From: a virus
Virus record (IMG/VR): IMGVR_UViG_3300048589_001082
Span: 36,465 to 100,464 of that record
Strand: one strand, 5' to 3'
DNA length: 64,000 nt
Shown piece after piece: positions 35,447 through 63,623 of the stretch. A program made the translations under genes and the position numbers. How positions within the stretch are numbered: the stretch's first letter is position 1; each line of letters opens with the position of its first letter. The notes below the pieces were generated by a model. The model did no database searches. It was given only the letters and a program-made list of their open reading frames with translations, and had not been told where the DNA came from.

Positions 35447-36730
35447 CTACTCCACCTCCTGATGCAACCGCTCCGCCTCGGCCGCCGCCGTCCACTCGCG
35501 CCACAGCGCCGCGGCCTCGACCTCGGCCGCCGCCGCGCAGTAAGTCAGTCCGTGGGCCAGTCGCCGCCCCTCGGCCGCCTCGCCCATGTGCCAGGCCACG
35601 GCCGCCCGCAGCACGCCGTTGACCAGGTTCCGCTCGCTCCGCTCGTCGCGCCGCCGCAGCTCGCCCGCCTCCCACCGCGCCCAGGCCCGCGCCAGCCGCG
35701 GGAAGCGATGGGCCAGCGGCCGCCAGTCGGCCCACAGAGCGTCATCCGCCTCGCGGTACACGACCGGCAGGCCGAAGTGGCGGATGAGCCAGGGCGTGTG
35801 GCCCGCACGGTGCAGCGCCGCCAGACGCACCTGGGACGAGGAATGGCCGCCCCGCCTGGTCATGCGGGCGATCTGGCTGAAGGGGATGCCCACGGCCGCG
35901 GCCAGCACGAGGAAGGCGTCCCCGGCCGGCGTGCCGTGCAGGTGCAGCGTCGTCGTCCCCTTGCCCTTCAGGAAGCGCACGCCCGGCGCGACGGCCGCCG
36001 AGCGGCGCACCATCCAGTTGCCCCAGCGCACGGCCGCCAGCTTGCCGAGGCGGATGGCGCGGTTGACGTCAGTATGCTCCACGCCGTGGTAGGCGGCGAC
36101 CTCGCCCGGCGTCCACCACTCGTCGGGGCGGCCGTCGGGGGCCAGCCAGCGAGCCTTCTGCCGGACGATGAGCCGCCGCAGCCCCTCGTCGCCCAGCCGC
36201 TCCGGGCGGCGCACCGAACGGTAGAAGAAGGGCCAGTTGTCCGGCCGCGTGGCCCACACCAGGAAGTGCGCCCGGCGCATCCGCCACACCTTGCGCGTCG
36301 GCAGCGGGGCGATCTCGGCCGGCAGGTGGCCCCGCTCGATGAGGACACACACCTGATGTACATCGATGCCCAGGGCGCGGGACATGTCGTGGGCCGTCAG
36401 GTAGTCGGCGTAGACCATCGGCCCGCGCAGGCCACACCGGAGGCGTCGCACGCGCACGGCCGTCATCGACCGCCCCAGCCGCCGGGCGATCTCCTCGTCG
36501 CCCAGCTCCCCGGCCCACGTTTCCAGGAATTGCTGCTCGGCCGCCGTCCAGCGGTTGGCGCTGGTGGCCCGGCTTGGGTGGGGCGCGCCGGGTGTCTGAC
36601 GCGCGGCGGCAATCGTCCGCGCCGCGCCGTAGGCCCCGGCCAGGAGCGCCGGGTCACGGCCCGCGGCCAGCGCCTCTTGCAGCACGACCGCGTCCAAGAG
36701 ACCGTCGAGGTCGAACGTCACGTCAGTCAC
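35447..36730 (-). CDS. multi-HTH DNA-binding protein (Myb-like + excisionase-type HTHs), paralog A
   Basis: WTAAEQQFL...IARRLGRS; WWTPGEVAAYHGV.H.D.NR.IR.G.L.AV.W.NW. Confidence 0.75.
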   Translation of the reverse strand: MTDVTFDLDGLLDAVVLQEALAAGRDPALLAGAYGAARTIAAARQTPGAPHPSRATSANRWTAAEQQFLETWAGELGDEEIARRLGRSMTAVRVRRLRCGLRGPMVYADYLTAHDMSRALGIDVHQVCVLIERGHLPAEIAPLPTRKVWRMRRAHFLVWATRPDNWPFFYRSVRRPERLGDEGLRRLIVRQKARWLAPDGRPDEWWTPGEVAAYHGVEHTDVNRAIRLGKLAAVRWGNWMVRRSAAVAPGVRFLKGKGTTTLHLHGTPAGDAFLVLAAAVGIPFSQIARMTRRGGHSSSQVRLAALHRAGHTPWLIRHFGLPVVYREADDALWADWRPLAHRFPRLARAWARWEAGELRRRDERSERNLVNGVLRAAVAWHMGEAAEGRRLAHGLTYCAAAAEVEAAALWREWTAAAEAERLHQEVE

Positions 36731-59474: not shown

Positions 59475-59665
59475 AAAAAGACGGCCGAACCTCGGCCGCC
59501 TTGAACGCAATCCAGACGCAATCAGCACGCACTCCGGGGCAGGGTGGGGGGAGTAAAACGGAGACGCCAAAGGCTCACTGAAACCAAGACGCCACGGGGG
59601 GAGCCGTGGCGTCTGATGGTGATGGGCGGAACTTCGTATTCGTAATGGATGCATAGGAGGTTCCG
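59475..59665 (-). ncRNA. candidate sRNA, about 190 nt
   Basis: TTGCGC-N17-(TGg)TATCTT; internal hairpin AGACGCCACGG/CCGTGGCGTCT; terminator 59478-59502 with U-run. Confidence 0.45.
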
Positions 59666-60571: not shown

Positions 60572-60799
60572 TCACGCTTCGGCCGTGGGCGGCCGGCCGC
60601 GTTTCATCGCCTGCAACTGCTCGAAGGTGATGATCCCGCCCGGCCCGCCGTGGCGCGCGTTGGCCTCGGCCTGGGCGGCCGTCAACTCCTCATTGGTGAA
60701 CCGGAAGGCGTAGCGGGCGGCCCGTTCGCTCTCATACGCGCCCGGCATCCCCACTTGGTAGGCGCTGATTACGTAGCGGCCGTTCACGTAGTAGATCAT
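60572..60799 (-). CDS. hypothetical protein
   Basis: AGGAG RBS; TATAAT at 60830-60835. Confidence 0.65.
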   Translation of the reverse strand: MIYYVNGRYVISAYQVGMPGAYESERAARYAFRFTNEELTAAQAEANARHGGPGGIITFEQLQAMKRGRPPTAEA

Positions 60800-60856
60800 C
60801 GTTCTCGCTCCTTTAGCAACATGCTGTGTATTATACGCGACGTGGTGCTTAACTGC

Positions 60857-60978
60857 GCGTCCTACCAAGTGCATCCTACCGGGCGCGGGGGCTGGTAGGA
60901 AAGGTATACCCTCCTATAGGATGCTACAGGAGGGTACAGAAGGGTTGGTAGGACGCCCGGTAGGACGGCGGTAGGACG
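60857..60978. repeat. GGTAGGA(C) direct and inverted repeat locus (clt-like)
   Basis: Reverse copies 60860, 60874; forward copies 60894, 60947, 60959, 60970; central TCCTATAGGA. Confidence 0.85.
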
Positions 60979-60984
60979 GCCGGG

Positions 60985-62721
60985 CTAGTAGCCCAGCGCC
61001 TGCGGGGTGGGCTGGTAGCGGCCGTTTGGCCCCGGCTCGACCATGCCCGCTTCCTGAAGCACCTGGCGGATGACGTAGAAGGCCCGGCCGCCGTCGTCGC
61101 CGTACTGCGGGCACAGCTTCAGTTGCACCCGGCGGATGACCAGCTCGCGCCGGTACTCGTCCACGATCCGCTGCCGGGCGAGGGCGTCGATGTTCTCCAG
61201 GTCGATGGGCGCTTCCTCGCGCCGCGTCGGCCACTCGGTCGTGGCATAAACGATGGGCGGCGGCACGTCGGTCGGGGGAGCATTGACCGGAGCCGCGCGC
61301 ACTCCATAGAATCCGATGGGATTAGAGCCGGCTGACGGCCGCGGCGCGTCGGGCACGTGGGGAATGACCACTGGCCGGGCGCTGCCCATCGTTCGCAGCA
61401 CCGCCGGGCGGGCCATGCCCTCGACCAGCCGCGGATGTTCGGCTACGGCCAGCTTGCCCAGCACCAGGACGTTGCCGAAGTTCTCCAGCACATCCTTCTC
61501 CCCTTCAATGCCCAGGGTGCGCACGCGGGTCGATTGGGTCAAGAGCACCAGGAACAGCCCCACCTTGCGCCCCTCGCGCAGCCACTCTCGCCAGAAGTCG
61601 CGCACGTCGCGGCCCAGGGCGGCGACAATGGCCGGCATCTCGTCCACAAAGACGGTCAGCGGGGCGAAGTCGTCGCGGCCGTCCAGCCGCTCGCCGTAGC
61701 GGACGCGCAGCAGCTCGCGCAGCTCGTCCATCGAACCGCGGATGGCGTCGAAGTTCCGCCCGCCGCCGATGACCTCCAGCCCGGCCCAGTCGCGGCCGTT
61801 CCAGTGTGGGTCGAGCACGCGCACGTCGCCGCGCTGCCCGGCGATGAGGCGGGCCGCCGTGGACTTGCCGCTGTCCGTCTCGCCGGCGATGAGCATGTGC
61901 CCCTTGTCAATGACCGGCAGGGGGATGGGCGCGGCCTCCGGCCCGGCCGCGGGCGTGACGTCCACCGGCGACTCGACGCGGGCGGTCAGCTGCGGCCTCG
62001 GCGGCGGCGCGGCGATGGCGACCGGCCCCTGTGGCCCCCAGACCACGAACCCGATCTCCCCCGCCCGCTGGGGGCGGGACTGCCGCAGTTGCTGGATGAC
62101 GTAGCCGCCCACCAGCAGGAAGACCACGCCCACGGCCGTCAGCCCCACGCCGCCGACCACCCAGGGGGCCAGACTGTTCCACATTTCGCGCCGCGCCGCC
62201 TGGGCATTGCGCTCGCGGATCACCGCGTCCGCCTCCTGGCGCATGAAGGCGGCAATGGCCGCGTCGGCCGTGGCTGTGGCCGACAGGGTGTATGCCCCGG
62301 CGTCGGCCGTCTGCCGGATGGCCACGGCCTGCGCGTCGAGCATCAGGGCGTCCCACGTGGCCGTGGCCTGGGCAGCGGCGGCTCCGGCCGTGGCCTGGGC
62401 GGCGGCCGTCGCCTCGGTCTGGGCCGCGACCGTGCCCTGGATGGCGACGGCCGTGCCCGTGGCCAGCGCCGCCGCCGCGTCGGCCGTCTGCTGCACGGCT
62501 TGGGCCGTGGCCTCCTCCGCCCGGCGCGTGGCCGCCAGCGCCTCGGTCTGGGCCGTGGCCTGAATGGCGTTCCAGGCGTTGATCGTCGCCTGGGCGTCAA
62601 GCACGTCCAGCCCGCCGACATCGGGCGCGCCGCCGGTCGCGCCGCCGCCGCCGCCGCAGGCCACGGCCGCCAGGGCCAGCACCACAGCCGTCCCTAGCAT
62701 AGCGCGGGCAGTCTTACTCAT
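60985..62721 (-). CDS. membrane-anchored FtsK/TraB-like ATPase
   Basis: Lipobox-like LAAVAC; Thr/Ala-rich stalk; TM helix; HMLIAGETDSGKS; VFVDE; LREGRKVG.....TQS. Confidence 0.8.
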   Translation of the reverse strand: MSKTARAMLGTAVVLALAAVACGGGGGATGGAPDVGGLDVLDAQATINAWNAIQATAQTEALAATRRAEEATAQAVQQTADAAAALATGTAVAIQGTVAAQTEATAAAQATAGAAAAQATATWDALMLDAQAVAIRQTADAGAYTLSATATADAAIAAFMRQEADAVIRERNAQAARREMWNSLAPWVVGGVGLTAVGVVFLLVGGYVIQQLRQSRPQRAGEIGFVVWGPQGPVAIAAPPPRPQLTARVESPVDVTPAAGPEAAPIPLPVIDKGHMLIAGETDSGKSTAARLIAGQRGDVRVLDPHWNGRDWAGLEVIGGGRNFDAIRGSMDELRELLRVRYGERLDGRDDFAPLTVFVDEMPAIVAALGRDVRDFWREWLREGRKVGLFLVLLTQSTRVRTLGIEGEKDVLENFGNVLVLGKLAVAEHPRLVEGMARPAVLRTMGSARPVVIPHVPDAPRPSAGSNPIGFYGVRAAPVNAPPTDVPPPIVYATTEWPTRREEAPIDLENIDALARQRIVDEYRRELVIRRVQLKLCPQYGDDGGRAFYVIRQVLQEAGMVEPGPNGRYQPTPQALGY

Positions 62722-63145
62722 AGCGACCCTCCTCGTACCCCGGCGGCAGCGACCGCACCGTCTCGGCCGGGGGCAGGACACGCATCCGGGGGGCGAGGGG
62801 CAGGGGAGCCGGGCCGGGGCCGGGCGGCGCGGCGGGCCGCGCCCGCTTGCGCCGGCGGGCCAGACCGCGGCCGAACTCGCGCCCGGCCGGCAGCCCGAAG
62901 GCCACCACACCCACGTAGGCCAGCGCCGCCACGCCCAGCGCCGCGCCGAAGAGTAGCACGCCGCCGCGGCCGTCCGGCTCGGCGCGGGTTTCCAGCGTCA
63001 GTTGGTGCAGGCTCTTCGGCGCGGTCAGCTCGCGGTAGTCATAGTGGCGGCCGACCGCCTCGCGCCCCACCAGGAAGGCGGCCGCGGCGACCAGGACCAG
63101 CCCCACGACGAGCACGCGGTTGAGGAGATCGCCCAGTCGCTTCAT
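62714..63145 (-). CDS. two-TM membrane protein
   Basis: MKRLGDLL; overlaps ATPase start. Confidence 0.7.
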   Translation of the reverse strand: MKRLGDLLNRVLVVGLVLVAAAAFLVGREAVGRHYDYRELTAPKSLHQLTLETRAEPDGRGGVLLFGAALGVAALAYVGVVAFGLPAGREFGRGLARRRKRARPAAPPGPGPAPLPLAPRMRVLPPAETVRSLPPGYEEGRYE

Positions 63146-63363
63146 GCGCCCTCCCCATTCTCCGCGCGCCCGTCCTCGTCCGGCCCCAAAACAATCGGGC
63201 GGGCGGCCTTCTCGAACGCCAGCCAGCCGGCCATCATCTCGCGCTGGGCGGCCGACAGCGCCTCGTTCGGCCCGGCCAGCAGCAGGGATTCGATCAGCGT
63301 CAGCGCCGCCTGGAGATGCCCGGCCATCTCCTCCCATAGCTCAGTCAGTGTTGTTTTGTTCAT
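63142..63363 (-). CDS. hypothetical protein
   Basis: MNKTTL; ATGA coupling. Confidence 0.6.
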   Translation of the reverse strand: MNKTTLTELWEEMAGHLQAALTLIESLLLAGPNEALSAAQREMMAGWLAFEKAARPIVLGPDEDGRAENGEGA

Positions 63364-63594
63364 CCCCACCGGCCTCCACCGGCCGGCGCGCCGCCCCCGA
63401 CGCGCCGCAGACACATCCACCACCAGGACGGCCGGGGCGAGAAACGCACGCGGCCCCGCGCGAAGGTGCGCGGGGCCGTTGGTCTGGTAATATTACCGAC
63501 AGCCCGCCGCGGCCTCCACCGCGGCCGGGTAGGGGAGCGGCCGTGTTAACGGCACGACCGCTCCCCGTCACCGGGTCAAACGAAATACAACAAC

Positions 63595-63623
63595 AGTATA
63601 ATGTTTATGGCGCGGGGTGTCAA
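63595..63623 (-). promoter_or_regulatory. consensus promoter of the ATPase operon
   Basis: TTGACA-N17-TATACT. Confidence 0.75.

Follow-up and report, generated by a model that had tools for sequence, protein, structure and literature searches.

A lipoprotein FtsK-HerA-type ATPase with an adjoining repeat array as a candidate TraB/clt-like DNA transfer module in a tailed phage with plasmid-type maintenance genes

The DNA analyzed here (the window) is a stretch of 64,000 nucleotides (nt), positions 36,465 to 100,464 of IMG/VR virus record IMGVR_UViG_3300048589_001082, and the system in question, at window positions 60,857 to 63,623, is a three-gene operon for a membrane-bound ATPase that ends beside an array of short repeats (Table 1). 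The window forms the final 64 kb of the record, which is linear, 100,464 bp long and 68.9% G+C, with a CheckV completeness of 89%. The first 36 kb of the record encode a large terminase (phrog_38, E 3.6e-79), a portal, head-morphogenesis proteins, a head protease, a tape measure, a Dit-like tail protein and an endolysin, and among the products of the window are ParA, a DnaB-type helicase, a replication initiator (Rep), an Ant-type anti-repressor and an HTH_17 protein. Across the 100-kb record, profile searches returned no tyrosine or serine recombinase. Judged by this gene content, with structural phage genes alongside ParA, DnaB and Rep and no integrase match, the record represents a tailed phage that carries maintenance genes of plasmid type, in agreement with an earlier reading of the nucleotide sequence (the original prediction) that had called it a packaging-competent phage-plasmid.

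The three genes of the operon lie on the minus strand, overlap by 4 and 8 nt and are translationally coupled behind a near-consensus promoter, and the small open reading frame (ORF), the protein with two transmembrane (TM) segments and the ATPase that had been proposed as its members are all present. In at least 20 related loci a two-TM gene of about 125-150 codons runs up to or into the start of the ATPase gene, and the conserved unit therefore consists of the two-TM gene, the ATPase gene and the array. In what follows, WIN denotes the window locus, L001 and so on the related loci, G000 the record and G001-G003 metagenome-assembled genomes (MAGs).

Table 1. Features of the operon, the ATPase protein P0001 and the repeat array (positions in the window; pLDDT, predicted local distance difference test)
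Feature	Position	Strand	Remark
Operon sigma-70-type promoter, TTGACA-17 nt-TATACT	63595..63623	-	11/12 matches; shuffles of the region, mean 0.0
Small ORF P0003, 73 aa, operon gene 1	63142..63363	-	end overlaps next start by 4 nt
Two-TM membrane protein P0002, 143 aa, operon gene 2	62714..63145	-	two hydrophobic segments
Lipoprotein-TM-ATPase-winged-helix protein P0001, 578 aa, operon gene 3	60985..62721	-	stop codon 60985-60987
P0001 signal peptide with lipobox cysteine, residues 1-22	62656..62721	-	hydrophobic stretch precedes Cys22
P0001 Ala/Thr/Gln-rich region, predicted extracytoplasmic, residues 23-186 (164 residues)	62164..62655	-	aligns across family
P0001 transmembrane segment, residues 187-209	62095..62163	-	hydrophobic stretch after conserved Pro186
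P0001 FtsK-HerA-type ATPase core, residues ~265-460	61342..61929	-	AlphaFold2 pLDDT mostly >90
P0001 disordered Pro-rich linker, residues ~461-508	61198..61341	-	pLDDT <50; length and sequence variable in family
P0001 C-terminal winged helix, residues 509-578	60988..61197	-	three helices and a beta hairpin (H-H-H-beta-beta)
Third helix of the winged helix, R546-E557	61051-61086	-	part of C-terminal domain
Array of six GGTAGGA(C) words, candidate docking site	60857..60978	.	6 copies in 122 bp
Central 13-nt hairpin/palindrome of array (60907-60919 / 60924-60936)	60907..60936	.	kept in L018
Conserved TATAAT segment, candidate promoter for 75-aa ORF and Ant	60815..60851	-	adjoins last repeat

The product of the third gene, P0001, had been described as a lipoprotein with a TM segment and an FtsK-like ATPase that ends in a short C-terminal domain, and this layout was found again by family alignment and in an AlphaFold2 model. 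The lipobox cysteine is kept in at least 90% of 27 aligned relatives, and the region that follows it (35% Ala, 12% Thr, 8.5% Gln) would lie outside the cytoplasm, given the lipobox before it and the TM segment after it. The core carries a Walker A motif GETDSGKST (residues 280-288), a Walker B motif VDEMP (359-363) and the triplet TQS (395-397); Walker A, Walker B, WLREGRK and TQS-R-V-TLGI-GE are invariant across the 27-member alignment, as is a GG pair in the conserved C-terminal domain. Searches of Pfam, PHROGs and NCBIfam assigned P0001 to no family and gave weak P-loop matches at most (PF01580 at 19.6 bits, below the cut-off of 24), and a profile search of the sequences of solved structures likewise stayed at the P-loop level. 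Its own family comprises 1423 clusters at E<=0.001 in a search of 1.84 billion representatives, and the named members are proteins from Chloroflexota MAGs. Look-alikes seen in the Atlas, namely cyanobacterial DUF87/HerA clusters and viral FtsK clusters, serve as leads only.

In the AlphaFold2 model of the cytoplasmic part (pLDDT 86), the core is a compact RecA-type ATPase of the FtsK/TcpA/EccC type. Foldseek placed the FtsK motor 6t8g first (E 8.9e-8, among dsDNA-bound FtsK motors), followed by TcpA and EssC/EccC, and VIA-align gave Z scores of 16.1 for TcpA (root-mean-square deviation, rmsd, 3.3 over 190 aligned residues), 14.6 for EccC, 13.6 for FtsK, 13.4 for HerA, 13.0 for VirB4 and 12.0 for TrwB. 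The original prediction had proposed fold prediction as a check for a C-terminal winged helix-turn-helix (wHTH), and a winged helix was modelled when the tail was folded alone (pLDDT 89.7), with winged helices as its best matches; the gamma domain of FtsK (2ve8) ranked first in VIA-align (Z 5.7, rmsd 3.1, 61 of 67 residues aligned) and had the highest Foldseek probabilities (0.80-0.84).

The array begins close behind the ATPase gene, with six bases (60979-60984) between the last repeat and the stop codon, and it contains, as had been noted, six GGTAGGA(C) words in both orientations, two on the minus strand (60860, 60874) and four on the plus strand (60894, 60947, 60959, 60970). Four of the six read GGTAGGAC, and the three gene-proximal copies lie 12 and 11 bp apart. 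The window contains GGTAGGA 8 times and the record 9 times; shuffles contain 4.12 copies per 64 kb, which gives six copies within 122 bp a Poisson probability of about 3e-16 (about 1e-9 once corrected for every window and every 7-mer). The 12-nt inverted repeat that the original prediction had placed at the outer edges is real and perfect (60874-60885 / 60954-60965), but it is not the outermost, as a 17-nt pair at 88% identity (60852-60868 / 60945-60961) and a perfect 9-nt pair (60858-60866 / 60970-60978) lie outside it; together the inverted repeats are nested about the central 13-nt hairpin.

As a single strand, the array locus is predicted to form a single long hairpin (-80.6 kcal/mol, z = -5.6 vs shuffles), and a reading must be weighed in which it only ends or stabilises the transcript as a terminator or structural RNA, with the ATPase serving some unrelated end such as exclusion of incoming DNA or secretion; protein-secreting EccC/EssC are indeed among the best structural matches. 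A terminator, however, needs no repeated word of 7-8 bp, nor one that changes together with three residues of a DNA-binding helix, and several arrays of the family (L013, L032, L016) consist mostly of direct repeats, for which no hairpin is expected. The promoter and terminator scan called nothing in the array, including no T-tract terminator, Rfam gave no family there, and neither WXG-type proteins nor other parts of a type VII secretion system were seen nearby. We consider a purely transcriptional role of the array very improbable.

In order to compare the ATPase with the DNA behind its gene across the family, 42 related loci were collected from 5 IMG/VR contigs, 12 Chloroflexota MAG contigs (from Anaerolineae, Ardenticatenia and Ca. 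Trichofilum) and 25 metagenome contigs. Forty loci, the window included, have at least 120 nt after the ATPase stop and make up the denominator for arrays, and a word was taken as enriched when the first 100 nt after the stop, compared with all other windows of the same locus, gave a fraction <=0.02. GTAG/CTAC words are enriched in 26 of the 40, and about 8 further loci have arrays of other words (GTCGGA, GGTAAC, GAAGCA, CAATAC, GTCGCA). The search for downstream repeat loci in homologues, which the original prediction had proposed, thus found that about 34 of 40 loci have a short repeat array of their own immediately behind the ATPase stop. These arrays start 0-40 nt past the stop, usually run in both orientations, and in many cases have a central CTAC-N6-GTAG palindrome at the same relative place as the hairpin of the window; L018 and L025 have the word GGTAGGA itself in a similar layout. 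The array stays with the ATPase gene whatever gene comes next, be it ant (WIN, L001, L018), parA (L020-L022, L025) or the gene of a large serine recombinase (8 of the 14 MAG and viral loci scanned for flanking ORFs).

Because parA directly follows the array in several relatives, the most serious rival is that the repeats belong to another protein, as a centromere (parS) or operator for the ribbon-helix-helix (RHH) partner of ParA, for the HTH_17 protein or for a repressor of the ant promoter. The parA gene lies 120-350 bp past the array in L020, L021, L022 and L025, type Ib centromeres consist of short repeats of either orientation in front of parA, the last repeat of the window adjoins the conserved TATAAT segment, and the HTH_17 and RHH proteins, too, differ between WIN and L001. 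Unlike a type Ib centromere, however, the window's repeats are not directly upstream of parA, being separated from it by Ant, a 75-aa ORF and about 1.4 kb, and parA there has AGACGCCA repeats of its own at 59556-59614, which may serve the ParA/RHH pair as a centromere or operator distinct from the array. Arrays are also seen in integrated, serine-integrase elements that have no parA or other par genes, which argues against the parS reading; five array-bearing loci (L003, L004, L006, L016, L017) have no HTH_17 relative in their flanks; and WIN and L025 share a word while their RHH proteins are 28% identical. Only the tail of the ATPase co-occurs with arrays throughout the family. A role as parS, which the original prediction had held against its own proposal, is thus not supported by the parA-less array loci and the separate parA repeats, and ownership of the array by any other protein appears very unlikely. 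The AGACGCCA repeats include a perfect 11-nt inverted repeat of their own (59587-59597 / 59604-59614).

The word in the array varies with the residues that open helix three of the winged helix, not with the ATPase core. WIN, L018 and L025 pair GG-RAF[Y/G]VIR with GGTAGGA, and L001 and L019 pair GG-QAGQVIR with TAGTCGG(AC), so that the L001-type word TAGTCGGAC can be set against GGTAGGAC of the window. Elsewhere in the family GG-HAYNQRIA goes with CGTAGCAC, GG-[GA]AYEMR with GGTAGCAC or GTAGCGC, GG-AAYQAVR with GTAGCGG, GG-SSFYKVR with TGAAGCA and GG-RAWIAIK with GGTAAC. The cores tell a different story, with 97% identity between WIN and L001, which differ in word, and 61% in each of the word-sharing pairs WIN/L025 and L001/L019. 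The DNA of L001, a sister phage, is 95-100% identical to that of WIN over codons 41-445 of the ATPase gene; identity then falls to 67-77% in the winged helix, the array cannot be aligned, and a 37-nt segment beyond it is again 92% identical. This pattern suggests that tail and repeats were exchanged together as a cassette.

A global correlation of 7-mer sharing with identity (rho 0.58 for the tail, 0.51 for the core) is confounded by relatedness and was not used as evidence; discordant cases and domain trees were therefore relied upon, with tree groups that were named after the motif table had been seen and before any tree was built. The tree of ATPase cores joins WIN and L001 as sisters (SH-aLRT 98) and rejects a GGTAGGA clade (p-AU 5e-5), whereas the winged-helix tree pairs L001 with L019 (84) and rejects WIN+L001 (p-AU 0.014). 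The repeat word has to change twice on the core tree and once on the winged-helix tree. The clade {WIN, L018, L025} is weakly rejected on the winged-helix tree as well (p-AU 0.021) because L025 branches outside it; GGTAGGA may be ancestral to the group, in which case a single change to GTCGGA would explain the pattern. On this comparative evidence the array is most probably the recognition site of the ATPase beside which it lies.

TraB of Streptomyces plasmids and integrative elements is an FtsK-like hexameric translocase whose C-terminus recognises the 8-bp repeats of clt, and it transfers double-stranded DNA without a relaxase or type IV secretion system (T4SS), aided by Spd membrane proteins (PMC4447253, PMC5365140, PMC3429521). 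The module in the window resembles the TraB/clt systems of the pSVH1, pIJ101, pJV1 and pSAM2 type in its membrane-associated FtsK-type ATPase with a (here predicted) C-terminal DNA-recognition domain, in the cluster of 7-8-bp words on the same element, in its putative small membrane-protein partner, in the element's lack of any detected relaxase or T4SS, and in its presence also in integrative elements with int, xis-like and rep-like genes. It differs in its anchor, which consists of a lipobox, an Ala/Thr-rich ectodomain and one TM segment, in its compact motor of about 190 residues, in repeats of mixed orientation that are mirror-symmetric around a palindrome where those of clt are direct, and in its probable Chloroflexota host and tailed-phage carrier. 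Of the TraB/clt-like reading in the original prediction, the fold class, the winged-helix tail and the adjacent repeats were thus recovered, whereas sequence homology to TraB was not; the module may work like TraB/clt, while membership of the TraB family by sequence failed.

In our proposed explanation, the 578-aa protein would be a membrane-anchored DNA translocase of the FtsK-HerA superfamily, held by a lipid anchor on Cys22 outside the cell and crossing the membrane once, with the core and the linker-tethered winged helix in the cytoplasm. The winged helix would read the GGTAGGA(C) words 6 nt past its own gene, probably through contacts of R546, F548 and Y549, which would make the array the cis-acting loading site of the element. 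The loaded motor, probably a hexamer, would work with the conserved two-TM partner and pump the double-stranded DNA of the phage-plasmid across a septum or cell-cell junction of a filamentous Chloroflexota host, as TraB does at clt. The anatomy, the fold class, the linkage of gene and site across the family and the joint change of tail and word are observed; DNA binding, hexamer formation, pumping and intercellular spread are what we infer from these features, and spread along filaments is suggested by the presumed host phylum. As a whole, with pump, docking array and DNA transfer taken together, this explanation is favoured with fair confidence, and for the purpose alone, the movement of DNA between cells or compartments, we would put the chances at even or slightly better.

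Several observations weigh against this explanation. The array has mirror symmetry and might be nothing more than the hairpin of a terminator, and published clt loci are direct repeats (PMC4447253). Among the relatives, 3-5 with the same kind of tail have no array (L002, L005, L041 and possibly L021). The winged helix finds only weak matches (Z 5.7, Foldseek E ~0.5), with unrelated winged helices scoring equally well; TcpA, which the core resembles most in structure, is a T4SS-dependent coupling protein; and no sequence homology to TraB is detectable beyond the P-loop. WIN and L001 likewise differ in the HTH_17 protein and the small ORF (~60% identity), and the WIN/L001 pair alone therefore does not single out the winged helix as the reader of the array. 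The record is only 89% complete, so that genes missing from it may exist, and the host is probably a filamentous member of the Chloroflexota, with both phylum and habit deduced indirectly.

The structural match to TcpA raises the possibility that P0001 is instead a T4SS coupling protein (T4CP) of the TcpA/VirD4 type, which would bring single-stranded DNA, processed by a relaxase, to a secretion channel whose genes lie in the host or in the 11% that the record lacks, with the array as part of an oriT. T4CPs have the fold class of the window core in common (TrwB Z 12.0, TcpA Z 16.1), TcpA of Clostridium perfringens pCW3 is likewise membrane-anchored and has a role in conjugation, one relative of P0001 is named a type IV conjugative transfer protein at NCBI, a weakly T4CP-like ORF lies 6.8 kb upstream of the module in G001, and the array forms a long inverted repeat as many oriT sites do. 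A sequence-reading winged helix that covaries with its site, however, is a trait of TraB and FtsK and to our knowledge not of T4CPs, and we know of no site-reading winged helix in TcpA. The 100-kb record gave no match to VirB4 (PF03135), relaxase (PF03432) or T4CP (PF02534), other relaxase families not having been searched, and P0001 itself has no match to PF02534 or PF10412 at E<=0.1. TcpA works with the T4SS-like Tcp apparatus (PMC5365140), whereas no such apparatus was detected in the phage record and no VirB4 match in G001-G003; the T4CP-like genes of G002 and G003 are unlinked to the module, and VirB4 and relaxase families are absent among the 25 commonest Pfam families (at least 2 matching ORFs each) of 149 flanking ORFs. 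A role as coupling protein therefore seems very unlikely. The T4CP-like ORF of G001 (L047 564-2243, G001:C1:3000963-3002642) encodes 559 aa with weak T4CP domains above cut-off (PF02534, 31.9 bits), and an IS110 transposase lies further out.

FtsK and SpoIIIE provide a second comparison, with a RecA-type motor (Foldseek E 9e-8, Z 13.6) and a linker-tethered C-terminal winged helix for an 8-bp word, the FtsK-orienting polar sequences (KOPS) or SpoIIIE recognition sequences (SRS). A pump of this kind could serve only the vertical segregation of a plasmid prophage, loading at the array and freeing copies caught in septa as these close along the filament, or aiding dimer resolution, with no transfer to new cells. 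The fold, FtsK with a gamma domain, fits this alternative, as do the plasmid-prophage look of the record (ParA, Rep, DnaB, no integrase found) and the convergent orientation of the repeats, which recalls the polarity of KOPS. The window protein nevertheless lacks the alpha domain and the four-TM N-terminus, with a lipobox and one TM segment in their place, and its motor of about 190 residues aligns with the beta (RecA) part only; its gene sits on a mobile element, and its words are clustered at one locus (6 of 9 copies in 122 bp) instead of being scattered with a skew over the genome. The record yielded no Xer-type recombinase, and the same module occurs in serine-integrase integrated elements, which need no plasmid segregation. 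Segregation is a real alternative for the phage-plasmid and less natural for the integrated elements, and overall we regard it as unlikely.

A third comparison, with TdtA of the Thermus thermophilus element ICETh1, returns to DNA transfer. In transjugation, this FtsK/HerA-type hexameric ATPase exports double-stranded DNA from the donor with no need of a T4SS; it lacks a DNA-binding domain as well as a defined cis site, and it relies on the competence system of the recipient (PMC5365140). An FtsK/HerA-type ATPase on a small integrative element is common to both cases, whereas the window protein has a winged helix and an array that TdtA does not.

TraB/clt conjugation, for which a single protein and no relaxase suffice to move double-stranded DNA, is regarded as a speciality of mycelial actinomycetes, and what is new here is a different ATPase family, a new phylum (Chloroflexota) and a phage as carrier, in a module carried by small integrative elements as well as by a 100-kb tailed phage-plasmid. 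A literature search, outside which most subscription journals lay, found no paper on TraB-like systems in Chloroflexota or phages. If the proposed transfer takes place, filamentous Chloroflexota, which abound in sludge, mats and sediments, would have an unrecognised route of conjugation, phages could spread with no need of virions, and mobility scoring based on relaxases and T4SS would miss such elements. The covariation table predicts three specificity-setting residues, a prediction that can be tested in vitro even though the hosts are uncultured. We offer more tentatively, as a view that we think somewhat less probable than its opposite, that the phage-plasmid has three routes of spread (virions, plasmid inheritance and naked-DNA transfer within the filament) and that such modules, from unrelated families, recur in Actinomycetota, Cyanobacteriota and Chloroflexota. 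Such modules would then be a general solution for moving DNA within filaments, and plasmids typed as non-mobilizable, such as pDU1, would be mobile.

Among Chloroflexota the ATPase is uncommon, with matches in 4 of 201 sampled genomes at E<=1e-30, and tblastn against GenBank phages found none. A tblastn search of 72,556 plasmids gave 10 matches, all on plasmids of filamentous cyanobacteria, all typed non-mobilizable and none from an actinomycete. Among small cyanobacterial plasmids, pDU1 (L045 1557-2690) and pCC7120zeta (L046 2957-4129) encode relatives of the ATPase domain at ~35-38% identity over ~160-220 residues, and these plasmids include the replicon of Anabaena shuttle vectors; the non-coding stretches after their ATPase genes held no clear array of the window's kind. 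In Anaerolineae and Ardenticatenaceae MAGs the module sits in a compact integrated element (L008 1118-10063; also L007, L010, L011 and L015), which encodes an RHH (NikA-like) protein, a 755-aa DUF3854 protein, an HTH_17 protein, a TM and wHTH protein and a two-TM protein, continues with the ATPase, the array and a large serine recombinase, and in L008 adjoins a truncated Mg_chelatase/ComM-type ORF. This gene set resembles that of actinomycete integrative and conjugative elements, by analogy of content.

The other members of the operon are less widespread in sequence. P0003 and P0002 matched no family in Pfam, PHROGs or NCBIfam; among the related loci, tblastn found a relative of P0003 in L001 only (60% identity), and P0002 has sequence relatives in L001, L019 and L006. 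DUF2637-type membrane-plus-wHTH proteins lie near the module in some loci, and in L016 (3154-5196, one MAG) the usual small membrane protein is replaced, directly upstream of the ATPase, by a protein of 681 aa that has a ParB-type HTH and, at its C-terminus, a winged helix. In the window, the operon promoter is followed by a leader of about 230 nt (63364-63594) that reaches to the first ORF of the operon and contains a strong GC hairpin near 63528-63565, for which Rfam gave sub-threshold matches only (SymR, c4-a1b1).

On the far side of the array, a 75-aa ORF (60572-60799; no family in Pfam, PHROGs or NCBIfam) lies between the array and ant and is missing in L001, where ant directly follows the array. 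The 37-nt TATAAT segment, which the consensus promoter scan did not call, is the one that is 92% identical to L001 (7979-8015) although the neighbouring array cannot be aligned. Because this candidate ant promoter abuts the last repeat, occupancy of the array may also regulate ant.

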